In this document: one piece after another, positions 28,302 through 43,086 of the stretch
How positions within the stretch are numbered: the stretch's first letter is position 1
Layout: every line of letters starts with the position of its first letter
NCBI GenBank assembly: GCA_949474265.1
Contig: CASXBC010000002.1
Location: forward strand, 48,926 to 112,925
Origin: an uncultured bacterium
GTDB taxonomy: Bacteria > Bacillota > Clostridia > Christensenellales > UBA1242
Direction: 5' to 3'
Length of the DNA: 64,000 nt
Made by a program: the position numbers and the translations under genes
Notes under the pieces: generated by a model
What the model was told of the DNA's origin: nothing
The model's database searches: none
The model's input: the letters and a program-made list of their open reading frames with translations, nothing else

Positions 28302-28322
28302 TGGTGGCTCGCCCGGGATTCG
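28302..28322. repeat. attL: 21-bp copy of the tRNA-Lys 3' end (TGGTGGCTCGCCCGGGATTCG)
   Basis: Identical 21-mer at 41397-41417, where it forms the 3' end of an intact tRNA-Lys. Confidence 0.85.
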
Positions 28323-28468
28323 CTTTTGAGCAGGATGCGAAAATGAGCACGCACGCTTAAAGAGTTCGCTCACAGCCGGGACAAGGCTCCGGGTTCATCT
28401 TGCCAAAATGGCAAGAGGCAAATAAAATTTGCCAAATCCCGAACAAATATGAATAAAAAAGAACGCTA

Positions 28469-29974
28469 TTAGCGTTCTAAAGTTATGGTGGAGCATTGTG
28501 TTTTGTGTAAGAACTCGTTAACAGCTTGCTCTCTATGTTCCTTTGCCTGTTTAAAGGTAAACTTTTTATTTCTTTCAAACAAGTCAAAGTAAATGTTTAT
28601 GTAGTCATCAAATACATAAATGCTGTTTACAAAAGTATTTATGATGGTCTCTTTAAACTTTTCTGTCTTTGGCTGGTCAATGAAAACTTGCAAATATTCA
28701 ACAATGTCTTGCTTTGAGTGATGTATGCTTAAGGCTATTTTTATTTTTTTAACCTGCTCGCTGTAAGTTGCTTGTTGCTCAGAAAGGTCATCTGCTTGCT
28801 TGTTAAGACGTGAAATAATATTGTCGTTTGTGCTTTTCATTATTTGCTGAGTTATTTTGTCAAACTTCTTCTCAATCTCTTCAAGTTGCTTTTCAAGAGA
28901 TACAAGTTCAGAATTGTTTATTTCATTTTTATAAGACTCTAAAATTCCATCTGCAATTGTGTTGATGTTGTCTTTTTGCAAAACCATATCAAAAATAAAA
29001 TTGAAAACATCTTCTTCAAGTTGTTGCTTGTTTTCATTTGACTTGTTGCAGGTATGTTTCTTATATCTCTCTTGACATGAATAGTAAGAGTGAGTTTTGC
29101 CTGTGTGGCTTGTTCCTGAAGTGCCAACCATGCTTGCTCCACAATGACCACAATACAGCTTGCCAGAAAGTAAAAACTTCTCCTTTGCTTTGTTTGAAAA
29201 TCTTTTGTTCTTTTTTAACATATCTTGTACCTTTTCAAATGTTACTTTATCAATTATCGCTGGATAGTAGTCGTTGTTCTCTACAAAAGAGTTTTTATAA
29301 AGACCAATATATTTTTGATTTGATAAATTGTATTGAAGACTATGAAGAGTAAATTTTTGCCCCTTATTTGTCCGATAGCCCATTTCATTGAGTTGTTTTA
29401 CAATTTCATTCATGCTTGTGCCTTTAGCATATTCACTAAAGAAAAATCTTACTGCAGGAGCCTGTTCTTCGTTGATTTTGATTTTCTTGTCAACTACCTT
29501 ATAGCCATATAAAATATTGCCACCTGTAAAATTGCCCTTTAATATATTCTCTCTCATTCCTCTTGTGACTTTTTGGCTCAAGTCTTTTGAATACATCTCA
29601 GCAAACATCTCAAGCAAGCCTTCCATCAAGACACCTTCTGGGGTGTTGCTTATCACTTCAGTTGCTGAAATCACTCTCACACCGTTTTGCTGAAGCTTGT
29701 GTTTGTATATTGCGTTGTCATACTTACTTCTGCTAAATCTATCCAGCTTGTAGACCAAAACATATTCAAATTGCTTTTTAGCACTATCAGCAATCATTCT
29801 TTGAAACTCTGGGCGGTCGGCATTTGTGCCTGTCATGGCACGGTCAATGTATTCATGAATGATTTTATATCCTTTTCTTTCGGCATATTCACGACACACA
29901 CGCAGTTGACCTTCAATGCTTTGTTCTGTTTGTGCTGATGAAGAATACCTGGCATAAATAACAATATTTGTCAT
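28469..29974 (-). CDS. Large serine recombinase (integrase of island 2)
   Basis: 501 aa. MTNIVIYARYSSSAQTEQSIEGQ, canonical YKLDRFSRSKY, Cys-rich LYCGHCG...YYSC zinc-ribbon-like region. Confidence 0.92.
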   Translation of the reverse strand: MTNIVIYARYSSSAQTEQSIEGQLRVCREYAERKGYKIIHEYIDRAMTGTNADRPEFQRMIADSAKKQFEYVLVYKLDRFSRSKYDNAIYKHKLQQNGVRVISATEVISNTPEGVLMEGLLEMFAEMYSKDLSQKVTRGMRENILKGNFTGGNILYGYKVVDKKIKINEEQAPAVRFFFSEYAKGTSMNEIVKQLNEMGYRTNKGQKFTLHSLQYNLSNQKYIGLYKNSFVENNDYYPAIIDKVTFEKVQDMLKKNKRFSNKAKEKFLLSGKLYCGHCGASMVGTSGTSHTGKTHSYYSCQERYKKHTCNKSNENKQQLEEDVFNFIFDMVLQKDNINTIADGILESYKNEINNSELVSLEKQLEEIEKKFDKITQQIMKSTNDNIISRLNKQADDLSEQQATYSEQVKKIKIALSIHHSKQDIVEYLQVFIDQPKTEKFKETIINTFVNSIYVFDDYINIYFDLFERNKKFTFKQAKEHREQAVNEFLHKTQCSTITLER

Positions 29975-29977
29975 ATT

Positions 29978-30610
29978 TCATCCCTTGTTGATGTTATAAG
30001 CGGTTTGTATTGTGACATTTACATGAATAGGTGAAGTATCTGAATAATAATCAGAGTTTATCATAAAATCGTATTCAGTTTTACAGTTGCTTTTTGTATA
30101 AAAGCGAAGCGTGTTATCAACTTCTTTAGTATAACAAGTAAATGTTTTCGAATAAGAGTTTCTAGAAAGTTTACCATCTCGCCATTCTTTAGTTACAAAA
30201 GAAATATATAATTTAACTTTTCCAACATTTGTATCGATTAAGTGGTCATTTTCATTTTTCTGTGTGTCTTTGTATGTAGATGTTAGAGTGTTCCCTTCTG
30301 TTGTGTTTTTAGCAATTACATACTCAAAGAATTTATGAGAGTCGTTTGTGAGATGAATTACATAAGCAGAAAAGTAAAAAGGTTTATAATTTGCATGACT
30401 TATATCTTTATCAACAGAAATTGATGTGCTATATATCTTGTTTAATTGAAGATTTTGTTTTTGCTTATTTGTATGATACATTATTGTAAATGACATAAAA
30501 GTCAAAAACAATACAGCAAAAATTAAAGCAAAAAGGTATTTTAATTTATACTTTTTGAGAACTGCTTTTAAGTTTTCAAATCGAGATGTATTTTTATTTT
30601 CTTCTTCCAT
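29978..30610 (-). CDS. Membrane-anchored hypothetical protein (moron or exclusion-type position)
   Basis: 210 aa. Single TM YLFALIFAVLFLTFMSFTIMY. Stop lies 3 nt before the integrase ATG. Confidence 0.65.
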   Translation of the reverse strand: MEEENKNTSRFENLKAVLKKYKLKYLFALIFAVLFLTFMSFTIMYHTNKQKQNLQLNKIYSTSISVDKDISHANYKPFYFSAYVIHLTNDSHKFFEYVIAKNTTEGNTLTSTYKDTQKNENDHLIDTNVGKVKLYISFVTKEWRDGKLSRNSYSKTFTCYTKEVDNTLRFYTKSNCKTEYDFMINSDYYSDTSPIHVNVTIQTAYNINKG

Positions 30611-30642: not shown

Positions 30643-31254
30643 TTAGTGTTTTTTGTTTCTTTGAATGAATTTTTTAAGCTGTTTCAAAAGTTTTTGCTCA
30701 AGTGGGTTTGTGTAAAACTGATTTCTGTCTTTTATTTCGTTGTAGCGCTTCATGCGAAATATTGCTGCATCGATACTGACATCACAAAGCAAAGCGAGTT
30801 CTTCTGCTGTTTCGATGTTCAGCTCTTTGATAAGTAACATTGGCATAAGCACTCTTGCTGAAAACATGTTCGCTTCTTTCTCAAGTTTTGTGCCTTTGTA
30901 TGTTTTGTGCAGCACAATGTGTCCAATTTCATGACATATAGTAAATCGATTACGCCAGCGGTCATTGTTTTGGTTATAACAGATGACATACGACCCTTCC
31001 ATTATCTCAGTGAAACCATCGGGGTATTGTTCTATCAGTTTTTCTTGCTTTATGCCATGCACTTGGCTATATTTGTTGTAACTCCATATTTGCCAATTAT
31101 TGTTTTTGGCAATCTTGCGAAGGTCTAAAGGATAACTTTTGACCTTGTTTTTTATTAAAAACTCCCACGCATTGTTTCTGACAGCATAGTAGTTGACATC
31201 GTATGTGGGCGGGTTGTGATTTGGTTTTTCAATAATGACATTTTCTTTTTCCAT
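30643..31254 (-). CDS. ImmA/IrrE-family metallopeptidase
   Basis: 203 aa. HEXXH motif in FTICHEIGHIVLH. Adjacent to the XRE repressor. Confidence 0.85.
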   Translation of the reverse strand: MEKENVIIEKPNHNPPTYDVNYYAVRNNAWEFLIKNKVKSYPLDLRKIAKNNNWQIWSYNKYSQVHGIKQEKLIEQYPDGFTEIMEGSYVICYNQNNDRWRNRFTICHEIGHIVLHKTYKGTKLEKEANMFSARVLMPMLLIKELNIETAEELALLCDVSIDAAIFRMKRYNEIKDRNQFYTNPLEQKLLKQLKKFIQRNKKH

Positions 31255-31301: not shown

Positions 31302-31637
31302 TTAAAACTTGTCAACATCTGGAGAGTCTTTCATATTTTCAATTAGGCTTTTCAAAAGTTTGATTTGCTCATCTGACATATGATATTCTTCTCTGCCTGT
31401 TCCACGACCAAACACAACGATTGTGTTTGTTTTTGGTGGGTCATAAGTGTTTGTTTTGCCAAGTAAATAATCAATCGACACATTAAAGAAATTTGCCAAT
31501 GTGGAAAGCATCTTAATATCTGGAATTGCCTTGTCTTGTTCCCATTTGCTTATTGTTGACCTATCTACATTTAAGATTTTTGAAAACTCATCTTGAGTTA
31601 GATTTTTGTTTTTTCTTAGTTGTTTGTAAATATTCAT
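31302..31637 (-). CDS. XRE-family HTH repressor
   Basis: 111 aa from MNIYKQLRKNKNLTQDEFSKILNVDRSTISKWEQDK. The track ORF extends further upstream into the promoter region. Confidence 0.85.
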   Translation of the reverse strand: MNIYKQLRKNKNLTQDEFSKILNVDRSTISKWEQDKAIPDIKMLSTLANFFNVSIDYLLGKTNTYDPPKTNTIVVFGRGTGREEYHMSDEQIKLLKSLIENMKDSPDVDKF

Positions 31638-31670
31638 AATACCAACCTTTAAACAAATTATAGGAATTAA

Positions 31671-31761
31671 ATTCACATTTTTCAATATTTTTTTAAAAAA
31701 ATGGTAAAAAGGGCTTGACATTCACATTTTTAAAGTTTAGAATGTGAATATAAATCACATT
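31671..31761. promoter_or_regulatory. Divergent switch region with four ATTCACATT-type operator copies
   Basis: ATTCACATT at 31671-31679 and 31720-31728. Inverted AATGTGAAT at 31741-31749. AATCACATT at 31753-31761. Confidence 0.6.
31715..31743 (+). promoter_or_regulatory. Rightward early promoter TTGACA-17-TAGAAT
   Basis: Hexamers read directly. Operator copies overlap the spacer and the -10. Confidence 0.6.
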
Positions 31762-31773
31762 TGGGGGTAAATT

Positions 31774-31998
31774 ATGAAACTTAAAGAACTTTTGAAGGTG
31801 TTAGACTTAGAAACTCTTTTCAAAGTGAGAGTTGATGGTGAAATTGGTTGTAAAACAAGCACATTATATCCGCCGACAATTCAATGTATGGAATTAAAGA
31901 ACTACATGGACAATGAAGTTGAGTCGGTTATGTGGACAGAACGCCATGGAATTGTGGTGCTTATTAGCAATGAAAAATCACCACAAGTGGGAGATTAG
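31774..31998 (+). CDS. Hypothetical early protein
   Basis: 74 aa. RBS GGGGG upstream. First gene after the rightward promoter. Confidence 0.55.
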   Translation: MKLKELLKVLDLETLFKVRVDGEIGCKTSTLYPPTIQCMELKNYMDNEVESVMWTERHGIVVLISNEKSPQVGD

Positions 31999-32000
31999 CC

Positions 32001-32189
32001 ATGAAAGTTTTAGTAGGATATGTGATTTCAAGAAAGACAGGGCAAGAGATGCCGATATATGAAGATTTTACAGAAGAAGACGCAAAACGCATTGAAGAAA
32101 GTCAAAACAATGCTCTTGCAGATATTTTGAAAGACTGCATCAAGCCACAGCTTGTGCAAAAGAAAATTGAAAGCGGAGGTGTGATATGA
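32001..32189 (+). CDS. Hypothetical early protein
   Basis: 62 aa; tightly packed with its neighbours. Confidence 0.5.
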   Translation: MKVLVGYVISRKTGQEMPIYEDFTEEDAKRIEESQNNALADILKDCIKPQLVQKKIESGGVI

Positions 32190-32296
32190 GTTTAAAAGGC
32201 TACAAGCAATTTTGCAAAGAAGAAGGGTTGAAAGAGTGCCGTTGGGAGAGTTTGCAAAGTTACAAGCATAAATGTGGAAAAGTCGAAGGGGTGTAA
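32186..32296 (+). CDS. Possible 36-aa ORF (below the ORF-track cutoff)
   Basis: Its ATG overlaps the preceding TGA (ATGA). RBS GGAGG. MSLKGYKQFCKEEGLKECRWESLQSYKHKCGKVEGV. Confidence 0.3.
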   Translation: MSLKGYKQFCKEEGLKECRWESLQSYKHKCGKVEGV

Positions 32297-32297
32297 G

Positions 32298-32537
32298 ATG
32301 GTAGATAAAAGATTTTTTATAGAGAACAGCTTTGTGTTTGTGTTGAAGTGGAAACAACCAAATTCACTTATGTTGCCAAATAGACCAAAGACAGAAGATT
32401 GTCACTTGATAGTCTGCAGTGAGAAAAAGGCAAGAGAAACTTATGCAGATTTCAAAAGAGATGAACAAAAGAAAAAGAAAGTCTGTACCGGACTTTATAA
32501 AGAGTTTGCAGATGGCTCAGAAGAACGCATTGCGTAG
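32298..32537 (+). CDS. Hypothetical early protein
   Basis: About 79 aa from MVDKRFFIENSF. RBS GAAGGGG. Confidence 0.5.
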   Translation: MVDKRFFIENSFVFVLKWKQPNSLMLPNRPKTEDCHLIVCSEKKARETYADFKRDEQKKKKVCTGLYKEFADGSEERIA

Positions 32538-32546
32538 GAGGGTTAT

Positions 32547-33236
32547 ATGTCATTTTGGAGTATGCCATTGCCAAACTACATAAAAAATTCCAAGTCAATT
32601 TCAAGTGATGAAAAGCTGTTGTTTCAAAGAATTATGGAAAACAGAAATCAACTTGGTTGGTGTGGTTTGACAAATAAAATTTTTGCAGGTTGTTTTAGTG
32701 TGTCAGAAAGGACAATATCTGCGTGGGTTTCAAATCTTGAAAGACAAGGTTTTATCAACATCACAAACAGCCGACACAACAAAGAAAGACACATCTATTG
32801 CAACATTCCAAAGAGAGCTCCAGCAATGCCAGATTACAATGTCAATATGTCGATTGATGATTATCTCAAAATTTTCACTCTTGCATTTCCAAGCAACGAA
32901 AATGACATCCAAGAAAATATCACAGTTGAACAGGCAAACTTCTTGCGTTCGTTCAGAACCCATTTTCCAAACAAGAAGATTGATTGCCAAATCACTTGCA
33001 AGAAGATAGACAACTACACAGAACTTATGCTTGCTTGCAAGAGAAGTCGATTTGTTTCAGAAAATGATAATCTTGGTCTTGCATGGGTATTGGCAAATAG
33101 TGAAGAAATTATTGCTGGGAGATGGAAAACTTTTGATGATTCTTCAGTTATTAAATCAAACTTTTCACAGGGTAGAAATTACACCAGAGAAGAAATGAAT
33201 GCTTGTTTACAAAGTATTGAGGATGTGGAGATATGA
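32547..33236 (+). CDS. Winged-helix DNA-binding protein (replication-organiser-like?)
   Basis: 229 aa. N-terminal region GLTNKIFAGCFSVSERTISAWVSNLERQGFI looks like a wHTH. No HUH or helicase motifs seen. Confidence 0.45.
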   Translation: MSFWSMPLPNYIKNSKSISSDEKLLFQRIMENRNQLGWCGLTNKIFAGCFSVSERTISAWVSNLERQGFINITNSRHNKERHIYCNIPKRAPAMPDYNVNMSIDDYLKIFTLAFPSNENDIQENITVEQANFLRSFRTHFPNKKIDCQITCKKIDNYTELMLACKRSRFVSENDNLGLAWVLANSEEIIAGRWKTFDDSSVIKSNFSQGRNYTREEMNACLQSIEDVEI

Positions 33237-33808
33237 AAGCACTTGTATTATTTGAGACTTCTGGTGCGGTGTCAGTTCCATTCCGTGAAGCTGGCTGGGA
33301 TGTGCTGACAATAGACATCTTGCCTCACAAAGTTGACAATGAACATCACATACAAGCTGACATCCGGGACATAGACAAACTTGGACTTGACTTTTCACAA
33401 TTTGACTTTCTTATGGCATTTCCTCCATGTACTTATTTTTCAAAAGCTGGACTTCATTATTTGAGAACGCAAGAAGGAAGAAAAGAGAAACAGATTGCTG
33501 ACTTAGAAATGGTAAAAAAATTATGGGAAATACCAATAAAACGAAAGTGTTTTGAAAATCCTGCTGGTAGTGCTTTAAACAAACTTTGGAAGAAACACTC
33601 TTGTCGTATTGATTATTGTCAATTTGCGGACTTTAAAAAATTGACTGATTTGTGGTTAGAAAATTTACCACCCCTTCTACCAGAATAAATCAATTTGAAA
33701 CGTTACGGAGAATTTATAAGCAGAATGAGATATGGTTCTTATAGAAGATGCTTAACACCTATAGAAGTGGTATATGCAATGGTTAAGCAGTGGGGGGGGG
33801 AGTTTTAA
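33233..33808 (+). pseudogene. Small phage-type DNA (cytosine-5) methyltransferase-like gene interrupted by an in-frame TAA at 33686
   Basis: Motif I-like LFETSG, motif IV FPPCTYFS, FENP, LWLENLPPLLPE, then TAA. A further 39 in-frame sense codons (..RRCLTPIEVVYAMVKQWGGEF) contain a G9 run. Confidence 0.55.
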
Positions 33809-33826: not shown

Positions 33827-34042
33827 ATGAAAGAAAAACGACCGATGAACAAATGGCTCAAGAGAGTGATTATTTTGCTTGTCATTTTAGTTTTGTTAAT
33901 TTTCTTAGGACCTGTAGTTTTTTACTTGGGCAGTTATGTGCTTGAAGGGCTTAAATACTTGCTAGGATGGATAATTTGGCTTTTAAGATTTTTAGCTAAA
34001 CTTTTAGACTTTTTTCACTTTACAGGAATATTTGGAGGATAA
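33827..34042 (+). CDS. 71-aa double-TM protein
   Basis: Two hydrophobic helices (VIILLVILVLLIFLGPVVFYLG; LLGWIIWLLRFLAKLL). RBS GGGAG. Confidence 0.6.
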   Translation: MKEKRPMNKWLKRVIILLVILVLLIFLGPVVFYLGSYVLEGLKYLLGWIIWLLRFLAKLLDFFHFTGIFGG

Positions 34043-34045
34043 AAT

Positions 34046-35257
34046 ATGGCAAAAGAAAATTCAATTTTAAACAAAATAATTACATTGATTGCAGGTCTTT
34101 ACATCCCCATTGCCATTGTGGTACTTGGGTTTAATTGTTGGTTTATATATTACAAACTTGAATTAGAAGCAAACGTTTCTACACTTAAAACATCATTTAT
34201 AAATGATGCCACTTATAGTGGAGATGAGCAAGTTTTCTTTATGGAAGCAAATGTTTTTGATAATGTAGTTGAATGGAAATGGACTTATTATGTTGACACC
34301 TCGTTACCAAATCAAAAAGAGGACGGCTCTTTTGAAAGAAAATATATGTATTCCACAGGTGTACAATTTTACTCTCAAAATAAGGATGAGTGTTTTGTTA
34401 AAAAGGATAACTCAAATTTTTTCAAAGGTACAACACGACATTGGTACGAAACAAAGGATTGCACGTTTTATAGTACACCAGAGGGGATGGACTATGGTTT
34501 TGTTTCTCCAGATGAAGCAGAACTGAGAGACCAAAATAAGTGGGTTTGGGATATTGGTGGACAGCTTTGTCAGTTGAGAACGAAAGGTGATATACAATAT
34601 AACAAAATTTTATGGAAGAAACATACTTTGAGTTATGATGCAAATTACCTCATGTATACAAACATGGACTCTTTACTTTCATTTAAAGAGGGTGTGACAA
34701 TTACATACTTTGATATGTCAAAATTCTTTGATGTTGCATTGTATAACAAAGAGACAGGCAAGTTTGGTGAAGAAAATGTTGATGTAGATAAAAATATACT
34801 TGATGCACTGACTTTTGTTGCGGTTAAGGTAACAAAACATGATAGAGATATGGTCTCTTCAAGACAATCACTTTTTAAATTATATAAAGGTAATACAAAT
34901 TGGGAAGCAGATGGCTCAGATTCTTCACTTCAGTATTGGCAAGATAAAACAGTTTATACTGCTACAGCTAATGACTTTCAATTTATGTCTGCTGAAACAA
35001 AATATAATATTGAGTTAAAAAGCTCTTGCTTATATTATTTATCTAATTTTTCAGACGTTGTTGTTAGAATTGACATAAATCTCAACGACTTTGGCAGTGT
35101 TGCGGTGATTGGTTTTTCGGACAAGCCATTTGGAGAGTTGAATGTCTTAAGTGTAAATATTACAGCCACAGAACAAAGAGACTTCAGTATTCCGCAAAAC
35201 AAATGGACGATTACTACAACAAACATAAATCTCATTGAAAGGGGGACTGCAGTATGA
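34046..35257 (+). CDS. 403-aa membrane-anchored protein, unknown
   Basis: N-terminal TM IITLIAGLYIPIAIVVLGF. Large Trp/Tyr-rich ectodomain. 3-nt gap to the upstream gene. Confidence 0.65.
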   Translation: MAKENSILNKIITLIAGLYIPIAIVVLGFNCWFIYYKLELEANVSTLKTSFINDATYSGDEQVFFMEANVFDNVVEWKWTYYVDTSLPNQKEDGSFERKYMYSTGVQFYSQNKDECFVKKDNSNFFKGTTRHWYETKDCTFYSTPEGMDYGFVSPDEAELRDQNKWVWDIGGQLCQLRTKGDIQYNKILWKKHTLSYDANYLMYTNMDSLLSFKEGVTITYFDMSKFFDVALYNKETGKFGEENVDVDKNILDALTFVAVKVTKHDRDMVSSRQSLFKLYKGNTNWEADGSDSSLQYWQDKTVYTATANDFQFMSAETKYNIELKSSCLYYLSNFSDVVVRIDINLNDFGSVAVIGFSDKPFGELNVLSVNITATEQRDFSIPQNKWTITTTNINLIERGTAV

Positions 35258-35895
35258 AGAATGTGCTTTTAAAAATCAATTTTGATTTGTTTGGTGGTAT
35301 CAAAGAAACAATAATAACTTCTATAACAATACTTGCAGTTGTTGCCGGCATAATTGCGATTATCAAAGCAAAACATTTAAGACCTCTTGTGTACACAGTG
35401 TTTGCAGTTGCATGGTTGTTTACAGGTGTATTTTCAATTTCAAAGTATGTGTCATATAAAAACACAATCAGTTATGTGATTGGTACACCTGAGATATTTG
35501 AGCCTTATAAAGATTTCGACTTCTTGGAATACAATTTAAAAAATGTTGTGTGGGAGCCTAAAGAGGGTAGTTATATTTTTGAAGAGATATATCAAACATC
35601 AGCAAAATTTGAGGGAGAAGAAAAAAAATATTCAGTTATTGTAAACAATACACCGGCAACTTATTGCAATTCAGCAAATGGGCGACTTATTGCTAGATAT
35701 GAGAAGATTTTTAAAGACATTGATGGTGAGATTGATGCGGACATTACATTTAATATTCAAATAGTTTTTAAATCTTCGAGTATTACACTGAAAGTAACGT
35801 GTAATGCAACCGTAGATAATATTGGCATTGTAAGAGAGTATACAAATTTGAATGGACTACACATCAGAATAATTAAAACTGTATATTCGGCTTAA
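35254..35895 (+). CDS. 213-aa double-TM protein, unknown
   Basis: TMs ITSITILAVVAGIIAII and LVYTVFAVAWLFTGVFSI. 4-nt overlap with the upstream gene. Confidence 0.65.
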   Translation: MKNVLLKINFDLFGGIKETIITSITILAVVAGIIAIIKAKHLRPLVYTVFAVAWLFTGVFSISKYVSYKNTISYVIGTPEIFEPYKDFDFLEYNLKNVVWEPKEGSYIFEEIYQTSAKFEGEEKKYSVIVNNTPATYCNSANGRLIARYEKIFKDIDGEIDADITFNIQIVFKSSSITLKVTCNATVDNIGIVREYTNLNGLHIRIIKTVYSA

Positions 35896-35906
35896 AAGGA
35901 GAAGTT

Positions 35907-37526
35907 ATGAAAATAAAAAAAATAGTTACATGGATTATATTTGTAATAATTGTAGGTGTTGTTATTTTTGGAGTAACTTGGATTGGAATAAATTGGAAAA
36001 AAATCACATCCAAAAGTGAACTCTATACGCATGATGAGTATCTTCAATATGGTGAAGATAGATATCAAGCAGGACTTCAACAAGGCGAGGTATATAGAGT
36101 GCAACTTCTTGAATGTCAAAGAAAGCTTGCAGAGAACGAAAGTGAAACTGCTAAACTTGTTATTCAAGTGAATGATTTAATAAACAAAGGAAATGCTGAT
36201 GCAGAGATAATTGGCTCTTTAACTCTTAGAGTTGAGGAACTTCAGACAAATCTAGATGCTTCTCTTGAAAGTTTAGAAAATTTAAAACAAGAAAATGAAG
36301 AGTTATTGTCATCAAATGAAGCATTATCAAAAACAGTTTCATCTCTCGAAGTACAAGTGCAAAACTTGCAAAACGAGATTACAAGGTTTAATTGTTTGCT
36401 TGAAGCCTATGAGCAGATTGCTAATGAAACTGAAATGCTTGACTTTTATGATGATGATAATCCAAGTACTTTAGTTACAACAAAAGTTGTTAAGCATGGA
36501 CAAACTCTGAATGTATTGGATGTTCCAAATATGGAATCTACAGACAAGAGGGTTTTCAAGGGTTGGGCAAAAACAAAAGATGGTGAGGTTATTGATTTCT
36601 CAACTTATAGTGTTTTTGAGAGAGAAGTCTTTTATGCAGTATATACCTATTATTATGATGTTACCTTTTCAATGCCACATTACAGACCAAATGGACTATT
36701 GGATGAAGAGACAAGTACTCAAAGGGTAGAGAAAGGCTCGGTAGTTAAGTCGCCTTCGATTGAATTTGTTGGCTATATCTTTAATGGCTGGGAGTATGTT
36801 TTTAATGAACAAACCGGTACTAGATATGATGTCGATTTATCTAATTTTAAAATTGTTAGAGATATTACTTTCATAGCAAAACTTCAGCAGAAAACATTTG
36901 AGGAACTTACATGGTCTGAAATTTCTGGAATGTCTATTAGTGGAGGTTTGTCAAGTTGGCTTTCTGTTGGAGATGAAAGAGATATTGAGTTTGCGAATGG
37001 AGAAGTACAAACATTGGTTGTGTTAGGCATTAGCCATGACACAATAAAACGTGGAGGTACAGCTTTGTATTCAGATTCATGTGTAACTATTGGCTTAAAA
37101 AATTTAATGAATGGATTAAGTCAAGTAAATGATACAAAAACAAATGTTGGAGGCTATTCAAATTCAGCTATACGTGAATATTTGAACACTACAATATATG
37201 GGCAACTTCCAGAGGACTTGAGGTCAGTTATTCAACTGACAATAGGAAAGTCTGATACAGAGGATAAACTCTTTTTGTTAAGTGCTACTGAAGTGAGCGG
37301 ACAATCAAATTCTAATTATGCTGACGAAGGAAAGCAATATGATTATTTCAAAACACATGATTGGTCAAAACGTTTGTCAAATGGAGAGGGTGATGCACTT
37401 GAATATTGGTTGCGTACAACATATCTTGGAAATCAGTCTAATTTTATGTTGGTTGGTAAAGCAAACTTTATAACAACAACTGATGCAGATATGCTTTATG
37501 GTACTTGCTTTGCATTCTGTATTTAG
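35907..37526 (+). CDS. 539-aa membrane-anchored coiled-coil protein with B-repeat-like and DUF6273-like C-terminal domains (candidate adhesin or receptor-binding protein)
   Basis: TM IVTWIIFVIIVGVVIFGVTWIGI. Coiled coil about residues 60-170. FKGWAKTKDGEVIDF and FNGWEY repeats. C-terminal IREYLN..LFLLSATEV..YWLRTTY. Confidence 0.65.
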   Translation: MKIKKIVTWIIFVIIVGVVIFGVTWIGINWKKITSKSELYTHDEYLQYGEDRYQAGLQQGEVYRVQLLECQRKLAENESETAKLVIQVNDLINKGNADAEIIGSLTLRVEELQTNLDASLESLENLKQENEELLSSNEALSKTVSSLEVQVQNLQNEITRFNCLLEAYEQIANETEMLDFYDDDNPSTLVTTKVVKHGQTLNVLDVPNMESTDKRVFKGWAKTKDGEVIDFSTYSVFEREVFYAVYTYYYDVTFSMPHYRPNGLLDEETSTQRVEKGSVVKSPSIEFVGYIFNGWEYVFNEQTGTRYDVDLSNFKIVRDITFIAKLQQKTFEELTWSEISGMSISGGLSSWLSVGDERDIEFANGEVQTLVVLGISHDTIKRGGTALYSDSCVTIGLKNLMNGLSQVNDTKTNVGGYSNSAIREYLNTTIYGQLPEDLRSVIQLTIGKSDTEDKLFLLSATEVSGQSNSNYADEGKQYDYFKTHDWSKRLSNGEGDALEYWLRTTYLGNQSNFMLVGKANFITTTDADMLYGTCFAFCI

Positions 37527-37649
37527 AGACTTGTATATTGACTTACATAGTATCAAGAGATGGTGGGGAGATACTACTCACCACCAAAGGCGAGCAACAA
37601 GCTGGTACGACTCCTACTCGCCTTAATTTGAACAAAAGGAGGAGAAGAG

Positions 37650-37877
37650 ATGTCAAAAAGTAAGGCACAAAAGAGAAAGTTTGGTTTTGGCTCGTTTTGT
37701 GTTGGAGTTGCTTGTGTTGTTGCTCTTGGTGGTGTTGCGTTTGGAATTTACAAACTAGTTAAACACTTTGATAAGAAAGATACATCACAATCAGAAGAAA
37801 ATAAAGAAAATCAAGACCAATCTATTCAAGCAACCGCAGAATATAAAATAGCAGAAAAGCTAGTTGCTGGAATTTAA
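37650..37877 (+). CDS. 75-aa single-TM protein
   Basis: Basic N-terminus, TM FGSFCVGVACVVALGGVAFGIY, acidic C-terminus. RBS AAGGAGGAG. Confidence 0.6.
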   Translation: MSKSKAQKRKFGFGSFCVGVACVVALGGVAFGIYKLVKHFDKKDTSQSEENKENQDQSIQATAEYKIAEKLVAGI

Positions 37878-37950
37878 AAAATCAACATAAGCCTTAAAAA
37901 ATTATTCATTAAAATACCTAAAAATAAAACCAAGTTAAAAAGGAGTGTGT

Positions 37951-39177
37951 ATGCGAAAGAAAAAGAGAAAAGGAAAAGAAATTATAGGAGAGCCTATAAA
38001 GGAATATCCTTTGTCGCTTTTAGAAAGGATTGCACATAATCGACCATATTTAATTTGGTTTTTTTGGTCAGTAGTAACTGCAATGATTGTTGCTCCGACT
38101 ATTGTTAAAAACTATGAGAATTGGTGGTATTATCTGTTGATTGCACCTGTAATGTTTTTCTTTATCAAAGGGTGTATAAATTCAGTTAGACAAATTCACT
38201 ATTCAATTAGATGTTTTGTTAAAATATACGAGTATTGTAGAAATTCGTCGTCGTTTAGAATATTCTCAGGACCTCCCGGAACAGGAAAGTCATTTTGTGG
38301 AATGTTTTTAAGTTATATGAAAGCTTTGTATAATTGGCAAAAATTAAAGTTTAAATATTGGTGTATATGTAAGAAACTTAAAGATAAAGATTATAATCCA
38401 ACAGTTGATGAACTTGAAGTTATAGAGGCATATAAGTTTTATATTGAGAATGGCGGAGTTCCATGTTGGGGGTCAAATACGCCAGCTTATTCAAAAAAAT
38501 TTAAACGTTATTCTTATGATATAACATCAAGAATTGTGAGACAAGAAGAACGAGCACCATATATGCTTTCTGGGTTTTATGATGAATGGGGAACAGAAGT
38601 TTCTCTTGAACTTAAAGATGCTAGGAAATCAAATGCTTGTGGTGCTGCAAATATATCTGATTTCTGTAAATTCCCAAGACATTTTGGAGAATTAGAGTTT
38701 GTTGGTGGAGAGCAAGACCCAAACAATCTTTATAAAGATGCAAGGCGTGTTGTAGGGGAGATTAGGGTATATAACGGAAAAAAAGAATTGTTAAAACCAA
38801 GGTTTTTGATGTGGTTATATGAAAAGTTTGAAAAGCGTTTTACTAATAGAATGAGATATAGTGATGCAAAGTTGTTTTCTGGATTTATGGTTTTGTTAAA
38901 TAAATATATAAATGCTTGTGGGTATATGAAATTTACTTATAAAGTAATGGGAAATACTGAGACGGGTGCAAATGTTTCATTGAGTGAAACGGGGGAAAAA
39001 GAGTTTGTTTATATTCCTTGTGCTAATGATATTGTTTATCGAACTAGAGCATTTAGAGAAGCGTATCTTTGTAAGAATGATAAAGTTCGTTTGAAACCTT
39101 GGACAAGTTTGTATATGACGGAAGAGCGTGCTAGAAGTATGCTCAAAAGTGAAAATTTAGTAAAAAAAGAAGATTAA
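37951..39177 (+). CDS. Membrane-anchored P-loop NTPase
   Basis: Two N-terminal TMs (LIWFFWSVVTAMIVAPTIV; YYLLIAPVMFFFI). Walker A FSGPPGTGKS. Walker B-like SGFYDEWGT. RBS AAGGAG before the ATG at 37951. Confidence 0.7.
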   Translation: MRKKKRKGKEIIGEPIKEYPLSLLERIAHNRPYLIWFFWSVVTAMIVAPTIVKNYENWWYYLLIAPVMFFFIKGCINSVRQIHYSIRCFVKIYEYCRNSSSFRIFSGPPGTGKSFCGMFLSYMKALYNWQKLKFKYWCICKKLKDKDYNPTVDELEVIEAYKFYIENGGVPCWGSNTPAYSKKFKRYSYDITSRIVRQEERAPYMLSGFYDEWGTEVSLELKDARKSNACGAANISDFCKFPRHFGELEFVGGEQDPNNLYKDARRVVGEIRVYNGKKELLKPRFLMWLYEKFEKRFTNRMRYSDAKLFSGFMVLLNKYINACGYMKFTYKVMGNTETGANVSLSETGEKEFVYIPCANDIVYRTRAFREAYLCKNDKVRLKPWTSLYMTEERARSMLKSENLVKKED

Positions 39178-39196
39178 ATGCAACACATACCAATTT

Positions 39197-39237
39197 ACAT
39201 TCACATACACACACGGTGCGTGAGTGTGGGTGAATGT
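39197..39237. repeat. Strong hairpin ACATTCACATACACACAC / GAGTGTGGGTGAATGT
   Basis: Arms read directly. Both arms contain the switch-region motif ACATTCAC. Confidence 0.7.
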
Positions 39238-39428
39238 TTAAATAGATATAGTGTTGCTAAAATTGCTTATTTTACTAAATTTTCACATAGAACAAACAAC
39301 AAGCACCTCTGCCAATCAAATATAAAATCAAATACCAATTAAAAAATACTTTTATATAAAAAAGATTAACTAAATGTGAAAATTTAGATAAAGAAACAAA
39401 ATTGAAAATTTATAAAAAAATACTACTT

Positions 39429-39473
39429 GCCCGAACTTGTTCGGGCTTAAGATTTGCATTTGTGCAAATGCAA
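39429..39473. repeat. Two adjacent perfect hairpins (GCCCGAA-N4-TTCGGGC; TTGCATTT-N4-AAATGCAA)
   Basis: Read directly; lie just upstream of the RBS of the 39491 gene. Confidence 0.65.
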
Positions 39474-39490: not shown

Positions 39491-39985
39491 ATGAGTGCAA
39501 AAGCAATTATTGTAATATCAATAGTAATAACAATTTGGGTTTGTATGATGGGATGTATTATATGGCTAAACCTAGCAGAAAAAGATGAAAAAACAAACAA
39601 AATTAAATTAAGAAAGTTCAAGAACTATTACATAGGCAGATTAGAGGCTTTGGAAGAGTATTGCAGTGTATCGAAAGAGATAAAAAAAAGATGGGGGTAT
39701 GTTTATATACACCTTCTAGGTTGTAAACAAAATAATCAACGACAAACAAAAAAGCAATGGAAAATAAGAAATTCAGAAGCATACAAGCTTGGATGGGAAG
39801 ACTTTGCAAACTTAAAAATGAGGAATATACCTACAGTTTGTCGAATGTGTGGACAGCCAAAACATGACTTCTATTGTTTAGGTAATTGTAGAAGTTGCAG
39901 AAGCTATAATGGCTCACAAGATTTGTTGTGGGAAGAAAAATCGAAAGAAGAGGTGAAAAAATTATGCAAATACATACATCATTAG
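39491..39985 (+). CDS. Membrane-anchored protein with C-terminal Cys-rich (zinc-ribbon-like) region
   Basis: About 164 aa from MSAKAIIVISIVITIWVCMMGCIIW. CRMCGQPKHDFYCLGNCRSCRSY. RBS AAAGGGAGAGAG. Confidence 0.6.
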   Translation: MSAKAIIVISIVITIWVCMMGCIIWLNLAEKDEKTNKIKLRKFKNYYIGRLEALEEYCSVSKEIKKRWGYVYIHLLGCKQNNQRQTKKQWKIRNSEAYKLGWEDFANLKMRNIPTVCRMCGQPKHDFYCLGNCRSCRSYNGSQDLLWEEKSKEEVKKLCKYIHH

Positions 39986-40222: not shown

Positions 40223-40705
40223 ATGTTGATTTTAGATGAAGATTGCGTAGTGAGAAGAGTTAAAGCGAAATCGCAAGTTATTAAACCTATATATGCTATG
40301 CTTGTCAGAACAGACCAAATTTTTGACAATAAGGAAGAGTATAGCAAGGCTTATATTTCAGATACTTGGACTGGCTTAAAATACGAGGAAATATATTTTG
40401 TTACAAACAAAGGGAAACTGACAAGGAGAATATCGAAAGCAAGACAATTTAAAAGTTTGTTTGGTTATATATGGTGGTGTTATTGGCATAGTCTAATGGA
40501 CATCCCAGCTCCACATAAGCTTATAAACATTGCTCCATACCTTGAAGCTTTAAAATACAAAAGAACAAAGTGGAGAGAATTTGAAGAATGGTTGTCATTT
40601 CAACCTTGGGAAAATGGTTGTGTTTCAAAAGACAAATTGCTGGCAAAAGTAAGAAAGTTAGATGAGACAATCGTTGTGCCTTACAATGAGTTTGAAGATA
40701 CATAA
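40223..40705 (+). CDS. Hypothetical protein
   Basis: 160 aa, Trp-rich, no recognised motif. RBS GAAAGGAAGG. Confidence 0.55.
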   Translation: MLILDEDCVVRRVKAKSQVIKPIYAMLVRTDQIFDNKEEYSKAYISDTWTGLKYEEIYFVTNKGKLTRRISKARQFKSLFGYIWWCYWHSLMDIPAPHKLINIAPYLEALKYKRTKWREFEEWLSFQPWENGCVSKDKLLAKVRKLDETIVVPYNEFEDT

Positions 40706-41396: not shown

Positions 41397-41417
41397 TGGT
41401 GGCTCGCCCGGGATTCG
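41397..41417. repeat. attR: 21-bp direct repeat, part of the intact tRNA-Lys
   Basis: Identical to 28302-28322. Confidence 0.85.
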
Positions 41418-41472
41418 AACCCGGGACCCCTTGATTAAAAGTCAAGTGCTCTACCGGCTGAGCTAGCGAACC
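41397..41472 (-). tRNA. tRNA-Lys (anticodon UUU)
   Basis: Minus strand GGTTCGCTAGCTCAGCCGGTAGAGC..CTTTTAA loop..GGTTCGAATCC..GCGAGCCACCA. Cloverleaf folds by hand; CCA is encoded. Confidence 0.92.
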
Positions 41473-42160: not shown

Positions 42161-42373
42161 TTAATAATTGAAGCCGAATATTTCGTTGGGAGATATATCA
42201 AGAAGTTTGCAAATATCAATGATTTGTTGGTAGTTCAGTTCAAAAACACCATTTTCAAATCGGCTGTATTGTTGTTGAGTCATGTGAAAAATTTCAGCAA
42301 CTTGCTTTTGAGTAAGTGCTTTTATTTTTCTCGCTTCTTTGATATTGTTACCAATTTGTTTTGCAAGTTCCAT
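42161..42373 (-). CDS. XRE-family HTH regulator
   Basis: 70 aa from MELAKQIGNNIKEARKIKALTQKQVAEIFHMTQQQYSRFENG. The track ORF extends upstream through the divergent promoter. Confidence 0.8.
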   Translation of the reverse strand: MELAKQIGNNIKEARKIKALTQKQVAEIFHMTQQQYSRFENGVFELNYQQIIDICKLLDISPNEIFGFNY

Positions 42374-42407
42374 ATTTAATTGTTTACCACAAACTGATGT
42401 AAAATAC

Positions 42408-42436
42408 TTGACATACATCACTATATGATGTATTAT
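42408..42436 (+). promoter_or_regulatory. Promoter TTGACA-17-TATTAT with palindrome ACATCA-N5-TGATGT in the spacer
   Basis: Read directly. The palindrome is a candidate operator for the divergent XRE protein. Confidence 0.55.
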
Positions 42437-42461
42437 ATTTTTATAAATGGGAGATTGTGTA

Positions 42462-43073
42462 ATGGAAAAAGAACAAGATGTTTCAAAGAAAAAAAATAAT
42501 GGAATTGTTACAGTGATAACTATATTTATATTTTTTGCAATAATAGGAGCTATTTGTGGCATCTTTACTAATTCTTCTGAAGATGGGCAAAAACCTGTTA
42601 ATACACCTACGGATGAAGAACAAATAAATTATACATATTGTAATATTGGTGAAGAATTTTTATATGATGATTTAAAAATTACTATCAATAAATTTTCTAG
42701 AACAGGTGAAATATATTCAGGAGGGCATTATATTTATCCAGGTGCTTATAATACATGGTATGTTTTAGATGCAAAAATCAACAATACGAGCAATCAAAGA
42801 AAACAATTGAGTGGTTTATTTGGCAGTATTACGTATTTCACTTCTTTGATAATTGTAAGTGAGAATGGAGATGAAACAAGATATAATTCTACATATTATA
42901 CAAATAGTGATTTTATAGGTAATTATGAAGAGATTCTTGCTCATGGAACAATTGCAGGAATGTATTTATATAGAGTCCCAGGTGCAGCATATTCAGAGAC
43001 GAGTAAATTATATTGGGAATTTGGTATAAATAAAAAAACTTGTAAAGATTATGTTAGAGTGATTTTAAATTAA
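42462..43073 (+). CDS. Membrane-anchored DUF4352-like extracytoplasmic protein
   Basis: About 203 aa from MEKEQDVSKKK. TM IVTVITIFIFFAIIGAICGIF. Beta-rich ectodomain (LKITINKFSRT...WYVLDAKINNTS). Confidence 0.6.
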   Translation: MEKEQDVSKKKNNGIVTVITIFIFFAIIGAICGIFTNSSEDGQKPVNTPTDEEQINYTYCNIGEEFLYDDLKITINKFSRTGEIYSGGHYIYPGAYNTWYVLDAKINNTSNQRKQLSGLFGSITYFTSLIIVSENGDETRYNSTYYTNSDFIGNYEEILAHGTIAGMYLYRVPGAAYSETSKLYWEFGINKKTCKDYVRVILN

Positions 43074-43086
43074 AAAAGGAAAAAAT

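Follow-up and report, generated by a model that had tools for sequence, protein, structure and literature searches.

Positions 33827-39177 of the window, the whole 64-kb stretch of DNA analysed here, hold six consecutive plus-strand ORFs, each with an N-terminal hydrophobic anchor, the last of which encodes a P-loop ATPase. What would such a series of membrane proteins build or export? The initial annotation had proposed a module for non-tailed virions or DNA export. We consider it probable that this region serves as the morphogenesis module for a temperate, tailless and probably non-lytic virus-like element, 13.1 kb long and inserted at tRNA-Lys in a gut Clostridia genome, of an undescribed lineage related to inoviruses. 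Relatedness to inoviruses is argued from the pI/Zot-type ATPase; full identity with the inoviruses is unsupported.

An element at tRNA-Lys and its early genes

The 13.1-kb element is flanked by a 21-nt direct repeat matching the 3′ end of tRNA-Lys. Its boundaries and mobility genes are:

28302-28322: attL, 21 nt identical to the tRNA-Lys 3′ end and representing its displaced original (repeat search and sequence inspection); a terminator-like hairpin of the tRNA operon lies leftward of it
28469-29974, minus strand: large serine recombinase for integration and excision, 501 aa (Pfam Resolvase 2e-32, Recombinase 8e-19, Zn_ribbon_recom 1e-12)
29978-30610, minus strand: 210-aa protein with one N-terminal TM segment, without a family match and not kept in relatives; possibly an accessory or exclusion gene
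41397-41417: attR, the 21-nt repeat as the 3′ end of the intact tRNA-Lys(ttt)
41397-41472, minus strand: intact tRNA-Lys(ttt)

Integration of the element is deduced from the exact att repeat at the tRNA-Lys 3′ end together with the serine recombinase. A search for a circular contig or attP junction of the element found none. The recombinase is followed by a putative lysogeny switch and early genes:

30643-31254, minus strand: ImmA/IrrE-type metallopeptidase, an anti-repressor protease (Pfam Peptidase_M78 4e-13)
31302-31721, minus strand: Xre/CI-type HTH repressor (Pfam HTH_3 5e-18), kept in relatives
31640-31773: divergent promoter/operator region lying between repressor and rightward genes; it contains an inverted repeat and several copies of an (A)TTCACATTT motif
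31774-32537, plus strand: three small early ORFs (74, 62 and 87 aa)
32547-33236, plus strand: winged-helix DnaD-like replication initiator, 229 aa (phrog_19658 2.5e-11, phrog_270, phrog_186)
33233-33688, plus strand: short C5-cytosine DNA methyltransferase-like protein, 151 aa (phrog_757 8.5e-35; Pfam DNA_methylase 1e-5; PADLOC MTase_II 2e-5)

The best sigma-70-like sites of the element lie at 31715-31743 (+) and 31685-31657 (-), with 11/12 matches each. The position of an RCR Rep is filled by the DnaD-like initiator, which is neither an HUH nor a Rep_trans nuclease and whose family occupies the identical slot in five related loci (L001, L002, L010, L011 and L015). No SSB signature was detected in the three small early ORFs, and Pfam and PHROG profile searches found neither an RCR Rep nor an SSB in the element or any relative, in agreement with the initial remark that an HUH Rep and a ssDNA-binding protein were not evident.

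The membrane-protein module and its ATPase

The six ORFs were confirmed in number, position and order, with hydrophobic segments called by a Kyte-Doolittle scan, that is, by hydropathy alone and not by a dedicated TM predictor. The segments number 2, 1, 2, 1, 1 and 2 in gene order and are all N-terminal.

33827-34042, plus strand: 71-aa protein, two hydrophobic segments, conserved RWLAKVLDxFG motif
34046-35257, plus strand: 403-aa universal core protein, N-terminal TM helix and beta-rich ectodomain
35254-35895, plus strand: 213-aa protein, two hydrophobic segments
35907-37526, plus strand: 539-aa protein with N-terminal TM, coiled-coil stalk, Listeria-Bacteroides repeats and DUF6273 tip (Pfam)
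37650-37877, plus strand: 75-aa protein with basic N-terminus, Gly/Ala-rich TM and acidic C-tail
37951-39177, plus strand: pI/Zot-like morphogenesis ATPase, 408 aa, two N-terminal hydrophobic segments

The second ORF follows the first after 3 nt and overlaps the third by 4 nt, 11 nt separate the third from the fourth, and the last two are preceded by gaps of 123 and 73 nt. Homologues of the 71-aa protein were found in 6 loci at 35-48% identity (tblastn), with an aligned positional ORF in L015, and it is a candidate for a small core membrane protein with a structural or assembly role, akin to procoat or pVI. Among the genes of the operon, the 75-aa gene has the best RBS; it has positional counterparts in L001, L002, L008, L009, L011 and L014, and a tblastn match in L010. 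Size, charge and position are the only basis of the coat assignments, and they make the 75-aa protein a candidate coat protein with the charge layout of pVIII in reversed order. The 403-aa protein falls into 16 clusters in 5.8e9 proteins and resembles its positional counterpart in L002 (hhalign 99.1%, E=1e-18); its AF2 model (pLDDT 69) had no fold match, and sequence comparisons likewise matched nothing.

In the 539-aa protein, the FxGW units and LFLLS...YWLRT domain noticed earlier were identified by Pfam as the Listeria-Bacteroides repeat (PF09479, 1.3e-6) and DUF6273 (6.7e-20). Binding-domain proteins 5′ of the ATPase vary between loci, and this slot is hypervariable: it holds BspA LRR in L015 and L019, Kelch in L011, Flg_new in L016 and, in L010, a sub-threshold match to a gp53-like tail-fibre C-terminus. 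The 539-aa protein is a candidate adsorption or receptor-binding protein. The structural proteins of the module exceed those of classical inoviruses in size and number.

The ATPase may start at a GTG at 37945 (410 aa) or at an ATG at 37951 (408 aa), which has the better RBS. Its motifs are Walker A (G109-S116), Walker B (D213/E214), an EQD motif (256-258) and a conserved C-terminal region; the GPPGTGKS and FYDEWGT strings of the first two, as initially reported, are kept in homologues. Alone, the window ATPase matched nothing in Pfam, PHROG, PDB sequences or the phage database (tblastn), and its mediocre AF2 model (pLDDT 63) gave no significant Foldseek match, although Zot 2r2a ranked first (E=0.49). 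The wider family comprises 265 representatives, and among the 105 members in which matches were counted, 17 match Pfam Zot and 16 match PHROG Zot-like, while no non-Zot ATPase family was matched by more than 3. Member P0084, annotated by NCBI as a Zot-domain protein, scores 36.3 bits against Zot (cut-off 20.3) and 1.4e-48 against the window-family profile. Direct comparison of the family profile with 24 canonical (M13-type) pI proteins gave hhalign 91.1% (E=1e-6), and with the E. bolteae (Enterocloster) inovirus pI 93.8% (E=1.8e-7); a narrow 15-sequence profile reached only E=0.006 against pI. These sequence comparisons support placement of the ATPase in a very divergent branch of the pI/Zot family, as a relative of filamentous-phage assembly ATPases. 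The filamentous-phage layout proposed initially is supported to this extent; the support does not reach full inovirus identity, and RCR Rep and SSB are absent from all relatives.

It had been objected that the P-loop follows the TM segments. This objection falls because the pI of monoderm-host inoviruses typically has its TMD at the N-terminus (Roux 2019 supplement), and TM segments precede Walker A across the whole ATPase family. A TraB/FtsK-style dsDNA transfer machine, another suggestion, was rejected together with T4CP identity because no family member matches these Pfam families and no relaxase is present.

The adhesin-type domains of the variable proteins (BspA LRR, Listeria-Bacteroides repeat, DUF6273) are frequent in cell-surface proteins. 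They would also suit a non-viral integrative element that makes no virion and whose products serve in display at the cell surface, adhesion or secretion, or as a minimal machine for DNA transfer, for host benefit or cell-to-cell transfer. Firmicute ICEs also use the regulatory set of ImmA/Xre plus serine recombinase, as ImmA/Xre regulation in those of ICEBs1 type illustrates, and no relative occurs in the viral databases searched. This explanation is nevertheless unlikely: relaxase, T4CP, VirB4 and FtsK domains are absent from the element and the 105 ATPase family members, and a virion better fits the small coat-like proteins and the hairpin described below. Sequence inspection detected no sortase signal in the adhesin-like proteins, which are anchored N-terminally as are phage pre-assembly proteins. 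Moreover, virion assembly is the sole known role of pI/Zot-family ATPases (PMC6813254).

As a virus-like element, it would excise and replicate upon ImmA-mediated loss of the repressor, and the module would supply the particle proteins and the assembly/export ATPase. Structural proteins would build up in the cytoplasmic membrane, where the ATPase would oligomerise, its P-loop domain on the cytoplasmic side, and use ATP to thread the genome, either ssDNA as in inoviruses or dsDNA, outward; the long hairpin beside its gene may provide the signal for recognition. On its way out the DNA would be coated by the 75-aa protein, with the basic N-terminus facing the DNA and the acidic tail outward, and possibly also by the 71-aa protein. 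The adsorption end would consist of TM-anchored coiled-coil proteins whose binding tips can be swapped, here the 539-aa protein. The conserved 403-aa and 213-aa proteins may be core assembly or tip components, and release would proceed without lysis.

Relatives and known systems

The gene order of the module is kept in about 15 independent Clostridia loci, all in mobile contexts, so the arrangement is not due to chance. All loci with enough upstream sequence contain Xre and an integrase, the latter swapping between serine and tyrosine types (tyrosine in L001, L010, L011, L015 and L018). Searches for relatives in IMG/VR (by pattern-based scan), GenBank phages and PLSDB plasmids found none, and profile searches of the element gave no matches to genes for capsid, terminase, portal, tail, lysin or relaxase, nor to T4SS or defence genes.

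The small size (13 kb) and the lack of recognisable capsid genes could also indicate a satellite needing a helper phage, or a decaying provirus whose module no longer functions. PICI-like elements likewise combine an integrase, a repressor and a replication initiator. We regard this as very unlikely, as every ORF is intact, conservation across loci is purifying (33-66% identity), a conserved morphogenesis ATPase and structural candidates are encoded by the element itself, and searches for terS, capsid-remodelling and helper-interaction genes found none. The IME1 elements of Dehalococcoidia, proposed to be dsDNA budding or filamentous viruses, were also initially interpreted as satellites, and budding was left open for them (bioRxiv 10.64898/2026.09.15.751708). 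Like the virus-like element proposed here, IME1 combines a pI-like ATPase (compared by description) and several small TM proteins in an integrative element with a lysogeny-type regulator, a non-RCR replication module and adhesion-domain proteins, without tailed-phage hallmarks. Unlike it, IME1 measures 21-28 kb, has an archaeal-type primase-helicase, is reported only from Chloroflexota, and has virome and EM support.

Acholeplasma phage L2 (Plasmaviridae) is a dsDNA, temperate, non-lytic and membrane-protein-rich virus of about 12 kb, and the element resembles it in membrane proteins and size and would do so in lifestyle. An enveloped pleomorphic budding virus of plasmavirus or pleolipovirus type would use the membrane proteins as envelope spikes and matrix-like components, and the ATPase would help to load DNA into a vesicle instead of extruding a filament. 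This would accord with a module whose proteins are all membrane-anchored, several with ectodomains of 200-700 aa, with replication that appears to be of dsDNA type, with the budding archaeal viruses reported to have related ATPases and hydrophobic proteins, and with the IME1 preprint. It is quite improbable, however, since the hosts are Clostridia, presumed walled monoderms, whereas the known bacterial plasmavirus host, Acholeplasma, is wall-less. GenBank phage records had no detectable sequence similarity to the element (tblastn), and the significant affinities of the ATPase are to filamentous-phage pI; L2 is not known to have a pI/Zot ATPase.

Clostridial inoviruses have already been predicted and partly validated (PMC6813254, PMC8530359, PMC10061712), and the initial statement that no described Firmicute system matches was therefore overstated, though the lineage differs. 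Clostridial inovirus proviruses release DNase-protected DNA and filaments (PMC10061712). The comparison group of monoderm-host inoviruses with 'atypical' pI included iPF_00013 of Roux et al. 2019 (Propionibacterium B5, Thermus and Spiroplasma isolates), candidate 'Vespertilinoviridae' (Clostridia/Tenericutes), Enterocloster inoviruses (Burckhardt et al. 2023) and gut Clade-1 (Sugimoto et al. 2021). Shared with this group are a Zot/pI-superfamily ATPase whose TM segment(s) precede the P-loop, small TM proteins, the order of large variable protein, small TM protein and pI, an integrase, att site and Xre regulator, Clostridia hosts, and unidirectional, mostly unannotatable genes without lysis genes. 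Size is also alike, at 13.1 kb against the 7-14 kb predicted for Clostridial proviruses. In contrast, the element has a DnaD-like winged-helix initiator and no HUH/Rep_trans RCR Rep or SSB, while validated Clostridial inoviruses have RCR Reps and its own relatives do not. The membrane-anchored proteins of 200-750 aa number three to five, the candidate coat protein has the opposite charge order, and relatives were not found in IMG/VR or GenBank phages. The ATPase differs from the E. bolteae pI (262 aa, one TM) in its length of 408 aa, its two hydrophobic segments and an additional conserved C-terminal region, and is too divergent for a direct Pfam/PHROG match.

The order of large variable protein, small TM protein and pI also parallels III-VI-I of M13 and orf6-7-8 of B5. 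As in Ff phages (M13/fd), an adsorption protein, a small membrane protein and pI follow one another, and Walker B DE(C/W)GT can be aligned, as can the R...QD...R motifs downstream of it; the DECGT initially given for M13 pI was correct (LVLDECGTWF). Protein comparisons limit similarity to the ATPase core. Ff pI has the reversed topology, with the ATPase followed by the TM and a periplasmic domain, and Ff phages have a pIV secretin, pII RCR Rep and pV SSB, which the element does not.

The ATPase-stop hairpin and downstream genes

39149-39286: ~130-nt long imperfect compound hairpin straddling the ATPase stop, with inverted exact 12-mers GTGAAAATTTAG at both ends
39376-39413: further direct 12-mer copies (GTGAAAATTTAG), iteron-like
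39429-39446: small GC hairpin
39454-39473: conserved palindrome TTGCATTTGTGCAAATGCAA, before the 164-aa gene
39491-39985, plus strand: 164-aa protein, one TM, Cys-rich C-terminus
40223-40705, plus strand: 160-aa protein, partial homologues in L002 and L014
40717-40935, plus strand: 72-aa HTH-like protein, 40-58% identity in 7 loci

The initial description of the intergenic region as hairpin-rich has to be corrected; it contains the one compound hairpin, the small GC hairpin and the cluster of iteron-like 12-mers, whose exact copies in the 64 kb number three, all within 39149-39387. The compound hairpin is the most stable 150-nt stretch of the element (dG -36.5 kcal/mol, z -9.3), and its counterparts in L001, L002, L010, L014, L017 and L019 keep the structure and not the sequence. 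Lying immediately 3′ of the morphogenesis genes, it resembles the packaging-signal hairpin of Ff phages. It is a candidate packaging signal, single-strand origin, or double-stranded palindromic ori or operator. The conservation of the 72-aa HTH-like gene is second only to that of the ATPase, irrespective of integrase type.

The integrated element and its gene content

A 21-nt sequence, the 3' end of tRNA-Lys(ttt), is repeated exactly and in direct orientation at 28302-28322 and 41397-41417 and delimits a 13.1-kb element in the window. Like its relatives (loci L001-L019, Clostridia MAGs and metagenome contigs with a homologous ATPase and gene order), the element has the features of a provirus, namely an integrase, an att site, and a mobile context. 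Its genes are arranged as follows.

Left part, minus strand: large serine recombinase, 210-aa transmembrane (TM) protein, ImmA/IrrE peptidase, and Xre repressor
Right of the minus-strand block: divergent promoter region
Before the module: three small ORFs, a winged-helix DnaD-like replication initiator (phrog_19658, 2.5e-11), and a short C5-methylase-like protein
33827-39177, plus strand: module of six ORFs encoding 71, 403, 213, 539, 75, and 410/408 aa, the last being the ATPase
After the module: three further genes, one encoding a well-conserved 72-aa HTH-like protein

The six plus-strand ORFs of the module were present as claimed in the initial annotation. The first four are separated by a 3-nt gap, a 4-nt overlap, and an 11-nt gap, and the ATPase probably starts at the ATG at 37951, where an AAGGAG ribosome binding site (RBS) is found. 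The proposed membrane anchoring was borne out at the level of a hydropathy scan, in which the ORFs showed 2, 1, 2, 1, 1, and 2 N-terminal hydrophobic segments, respectively.

In Pfam, PHROG, and PADLOC scans the element gave no match to capsid, terminase, portal, tail, lysin, relaxase, type IV secretion system (T4SS), or defence genes, and no lysis genes were found by the same scans. A tailed-phage remnant was rejected, as its hallmark genes are missing. A host envelope operon was rejected because the module is always accompanied by an integrase and Xre. A defence system was likewise rejected, since PADLOC gave no match for the ATPase and membrane proteins; its other matches were noise from the coiled coil of the 539-aa protein and MTase_II for the short methylase. 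An Rfam scan of the element returned tRNAs alone. A free or excised form was sought in L001 (12.3 kb), which proved non-circular, with its start inside a tRNA, and a degenerate attB/attP junction scan of metagenomes gave no match. That the element is a satellite or defective is very improbable.

The large serine recombinase (28469-29974) is paired with a 21-nt att identity that restores the tRNA 3' end; large serine recombinases need only a ~2-bp crossover. Sister elements have tyrosine integrases beside tRNA genes, and L001 begins in the 3' end of a tRNA. Between attL and the recombinase stop codon, a GC-rich stretch (28323-28468) contains the second most stable 150-nt fold of the element (-52 kcal/mol, RNA parameters) and is a possible attP arm or small RNA. 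The C5-cytosine methyltransferase-like protein (33233-33688, 151 aa), as read from its sequence, keeps motifs I, IV (PPC), and VI (ENP) and misses the C-terminal half; the gene is absent from related elements.

The flanks resemble a low-GC, Clostridia-like host in composition and in a Spo0A_C-domain gene. The latter (27055-27450) encodes a 131-aa stand-alone Spo0A C-terminal DNA-binding domain (3.7e-17), with SLT transglycosylase and NUDIX genes nearby. Directly right of the tRNA cluster (42161-43650), an HTH protein of the Xre type, extended at its N-terminus by a hydrophobic stretch, is encoded divergently from two small TM or secreted-looking proteins of 208 and 187 aa, and this region may be another small island.

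Homology of the ATPase to the pI/Zot family

The GPPGTGKS and FYDEWGT motifs noted in the ATPase were confirmed and are kept as Walker A and Walker B in its homologues. G109-x2-G-x-GK-S116 and D213-E214 (hhhDE Walker B) are invariant or nearly so, both in the 15 sequences of the narrow profile and in 105 members of the wider family. The window ATPase itself is rare, with 15 clusters among 5.8 billion proteins. It falls below the Pfam Zot gathering threshold, with 0 Pfam and 0 meaningful PHROG matches, and a PADLOC scan also gave no match; a precomputed Pfam domain is absent from all 14 close homologues. A tblastn search of 50,697 phage records and 72,556 plasmids returned nothing, and no relatives were found in IMG/VR with the narrow alignment, in a pattern-based scan that distant members could escape. 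PDB sequence searches with the narrow and broad profiles gave matches confined to the P-loop. The AF2 model (pLDDT 63) had no Foldseek match in PDB or BFVD at E<=0.001, the first-ranked structure being Zot 2r2a (E=0.49).

Searching 1.84 billion representatives with a profile uncovered a wider family of 265 ATPase clusters (counted at 50% identity), 205 of them at E<=1e-10. When 105 family members were scanned singly against Pfam and PHROG, Pfam Zot (PF05707) was matched by 17 (best 5e-9) and the PHROG 'Zot-like toxin' by 16, the runner-up families being nSTAND3 (3), AAA_25 (2), and AAA (2). Three members, P0084, P0173, and P0106, lie above the Zot gathering score. P0084, named a Zot-domain protein by NCBI and found in a Clostridia MAG, scored 36.3 bits against Zot (cut-off 20.3) from Walker A to profile position 148 of 197, and was matched by the window-family profile at 1.4e-48. 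Like that of the window ATPase, its gene is directly 3' of a gene for a Flg_new-repeat protein. P0084 is the best bridge from the window ATPase to Zot. B5 Orf8 was also tried as a bridge and was not significant.

Independent tests by profile-profile alignment agreed with this. The family profile, run by hhalign against 24 canonical Ff-type pI sequences, aligned 131 columns covering Walker A, Walker B, and R...QD...R (91.1%, E=1e-6), and against the pI of the Enterocloster bolteae inovirus, which has been studied experimentally, it gave 93.8% (E=1.8e-7). The narrow 15-sequence profile aligned the same region of canonical pI at 5.9% (E=0.006). The DECGT motif given for M13 pI in the initial annotation is correct, and it aligned with the DEWGT of the window. 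Together, the transitive and profile-profile matches indicate family-level homology of the ATPase to pI/Zot.

The same annotation had held the order of TM segments before the P-loop against a pI identity. By hydropathy, the window ATPase has hydrophobic segments at ~36-54 and 63-81, both before Walker A, and nearly all of 122 family sequences have two to four such segments N-terminal to Walker A, a few having one or none. The objection does not stand, as this order matches the published architecture of iPF_00013, an 'atypical' pI in which a stand-alone Zot domain is preceded by a TMD (Roux et al. 2019, PMC6813254). In that study pI was required to have one or two TMDs, N-terminal in monoderm hosts, and the candidate 'Vespertilinoviridae' were mostly from Clostridia and Tenericutes (PMC6813254).

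The leading reading, in which the six genes form a morphogenesis module around a pI/Zot-type ATPase in a temperate tailless element, is probably right in kind. A non-viral surface or transfer apparatus made of these membrane-anchored proteins is unlikely. TraB/FtsK-type transfer, one of the options first offered, and T4SS transfer were rejected: FtsK_SpoIIIE, T4CP, VirB4, and relaxase were unmatched in the element and in the 105 ATPase relatives (Pfam, PHROG), and FtsK and T4SS families as a whole had zero matches among those 105.

Gene order and candidate virion proteins in related loci

Relatives were found in metagenome contigs and in eight MAGs of uncultured Clostridia, of which one is Catabacter. 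Their loci have a constant order of recombinase, Xre with or without ImmA, small ORFs, and the winged-helix DnaD-like initiator, followed by a run of N-terminally anchored proteins, a small TM protein, the ATPase, and small soluble proteins. The recombinase is of the serine type in the window, L002, L008, L009, and L014, and of the tyrosine type in L001, L010, L011, L015, and L018. The ATPase is broadly conserved, as are the 71-aa protein and the HTH-like protein of 72 aa. A large variable protein, then a small TM protein, then pI is also the order of M13 III-VI-I and B5 orf6-7-8.

The slot of the large protein is hypervariable, with a TM anchor and coiled coil bearing different distal domains. 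The 539-aa protein of the window has a Listeria-Bacteroides (Flg_new) repeat (PF09479, 1.3e-6) and a C-terminal DUF6273 (6.7e-20), with a coiled coil before them. In the same slot BspA LRR is found in L015 (1.7e-102) and L019, Kelch in L011, and a sub-threshold match to a gp53-like tail-fibre C-terminus in L010. Such variation in domain content is what would be expected of receptor-binding proteins. If particles are made, these exchangeable, adhesin-like tips would matter for host range and for interaction with the gut.

The 75-aa protein of the window has one TM segment by hydropathy and a coat-like but reversed charge layout, and its gene has the strongest RBS of the operon. The ~75-aa proteins of this slot have in common a basic N-terminus, a Gly/Ala-rich TM segment, and an acidic tail, which is the same charge logic as in the major coat protein of filamentous phages, but in the opposite order. 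From this it is inferred that the ~75-aa protein is a candidate coat protein. The 71-aa protein has two hydrophobic segments by hydropathy, the first possibly a signal peptide, and neither it nor the 75-aa protein is similar to known coat families in Pfam and PHROG.

The 403-aa protein is a universal core component of these elements, and its profile aligned with the protein at the same position in L002 (99.1%, E=1e-18). It had no match beyond these elements in Pfam, in PHROG, or by Foldseek on its AF2 model (pLDDT 69; none in PDB or BFVD at E<=0.001). Comparison with M13 pIII and B5 Orf6 showed no similarity. A weak relationship (E=0.001) links the 213-aa protein to the N-terminal part of a 503-aa protein of L002. 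Candidates for carrying a filament across a thick cell wall in the absence of a secretin are the 403-aa and 213-aa proteins, both of them conserved.

The accessory right arms of several relatives contain a DUF4417 / phrog_940 'nuclease' gene (2.5e-54; L002 14886-15545, L015 13428-14078) that is absent from the window element. Its product is a candidate non-canonical nicking function.

Replication, proposed genome export, and the hairpin after the ATPase

Among the phages of Gram-positive gut anaerobes, tailless chronic ones, including filamentous phages, have hardly been studied, and standard tools overlook them. The proteins of the element fall outside current profile libraries, and the element is unmatched in Pfam, PHROGs, GenBank phages, and IMG/VR unless a deep family profile is built. 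The replication families described by Roux et al. 2019 are rolling-circle (RCR) or Rep_trans types (PMC6813254). RCR Reps are also encoded by the Enterocloster inoviruses, from which DNase-protected DNA and filaments are released (PMC10061712), and by the gut Clostridiales clade of Sugimoto et al. As initially reported, no HUH Rep is evident: HUH, Rep_trans, and phiX-type Rep were unmatched in the proteins of the element and its relatives. The winged-helix DnaD-like initiator fills the Rep slot in seven loci, and the distant member L019 has a DnaD/DnaB_2-type protein (DnaB_2/Lin1244_N). The reported lack of a ssDNA-binding protein (SSB) also held, with no SSB-type match among the small ORFs, where a divergent SSB is possible. 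The element would work like an inovirus of a monoderm host but differs in the RCR Rep and SSB features.

IME1, a group of integrative elements of Dehalococcoidia, encodes a pI-like ATPase, small TM proteins, and a non-RCR replication module (bioRxiv 10.64898/2026.09.15.751708). Its authors propose dsDNA budding or filamentous viruses and report a range restricted to Chloroflexota (bioRxiv 10.64898/2026.09.15.751708). Compared by features rather than by gene homology, the window element is alike in the pI-like ATPase, small TM proteins, non-RCR replication, and integrase, but differs in size, replication gene, and host phylum. IME1 is the closest conceptual parallel. An enveloped budding virus is quite unlikely for the window element.

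It is possible, though doubtful, that these loci represent a lineage of non-lytic viruses, of family level or above, whose hosts are walled, Gram-positive gut Clostridia and in which the pI/Zot-type membrane ATPase extrudes a dsDNA genome replicated by the DnaD-like, theta-type initiator. If so, they would be the Firmicute equivalent of the IME1 elements of Chloroflexota, which were proposed in 2026, and would link ssDNA inoviruses with dsDNA archaeal viruses of the budding or filamentous kind; the 403-aa protein would then be a new core component of the virion or of the passage through the cell wall. If particles are made at all, the elements would be a new and widespread non-lytic virus lineage of gut Clostridia. 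A pI-type exporter combined with non-rolling-circle replication raises the question of whether ssDNA packaging is obligatory for pI-driven extrusion, which has only just been raised for IME1.

The region after the ATPase had been called hairpin-rich, a wording that proved too broad; what was found is one imperfect hairpin of ~130 nt straddling the ATPase stop (39149-39286, dG -36.5 kcal/mol, z -9.3). L001, L002, L010, and L014 have counterparts that differ in sequence (z -5.6 to -11.1). In a sliding-window scan, the ATPase-stop site or the stretch just after it was the most stable 150-nt window of the locus in the window, L002, L010, L014, L017, and L019, and ranked second in L001. L013 and L015 have no hairpin at the ATPase stop and instead have a stronger one 0.5-2 kb or more downstream. 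A relocation of the cis element is possible. The hairpins at L013 ~2011-2160 and L015 ~12901-13050 and ~15181 are extreme, at -64 to -73 kcal/mol per 150 nt. The Ff packaging signal is a long imperfect hairpin just 3' of the morphogenesis genes, and the window hairpin is similar in position. No strand asymmetry was found; since either strand folds equally well, the hairpin cannot tell a ssDNA signal from a double-stranded palindromic site.

The window hairpin is flanked by inverted exact copies of GTGAAAATTTAG, which has three exact copies in 64 kb, all inside 240 bp. A reverse copy lies 83-99 nt past the ATPase stop in 7 of 10 loci. The forward copy (39149-39160, codons K-S-E-N-L) overlaps the conserved ATPase C-terminal motif LKSENL, and the protein and DNA motifs may be mutually constraining.

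The exact 8-mer ACATTCAC has four copies in 64 kb (31718, 39197, 39230 on the minus strand, and 50363), one in the early promoter/operator region and two forming the arms of the post-ATPase hairpin. Their placement hints that the repressor might also bind at the hairpin. As an operator ACATTCAC was rejected, as it was not enriched over shuffles with one mismatch allowed. A palindrome, TTGCATTTGTGCAAATGCAA, is found just upstream of the gene after the ATPase (39454-39473). It is exact in the window, L010 (11525-11544), and L011 (11470-11489) and nearly exact in L001, L002, L009, and L014, and it looks like a putative operator of a conserved regulator, perhaps the 72-aa HTH-like protein.
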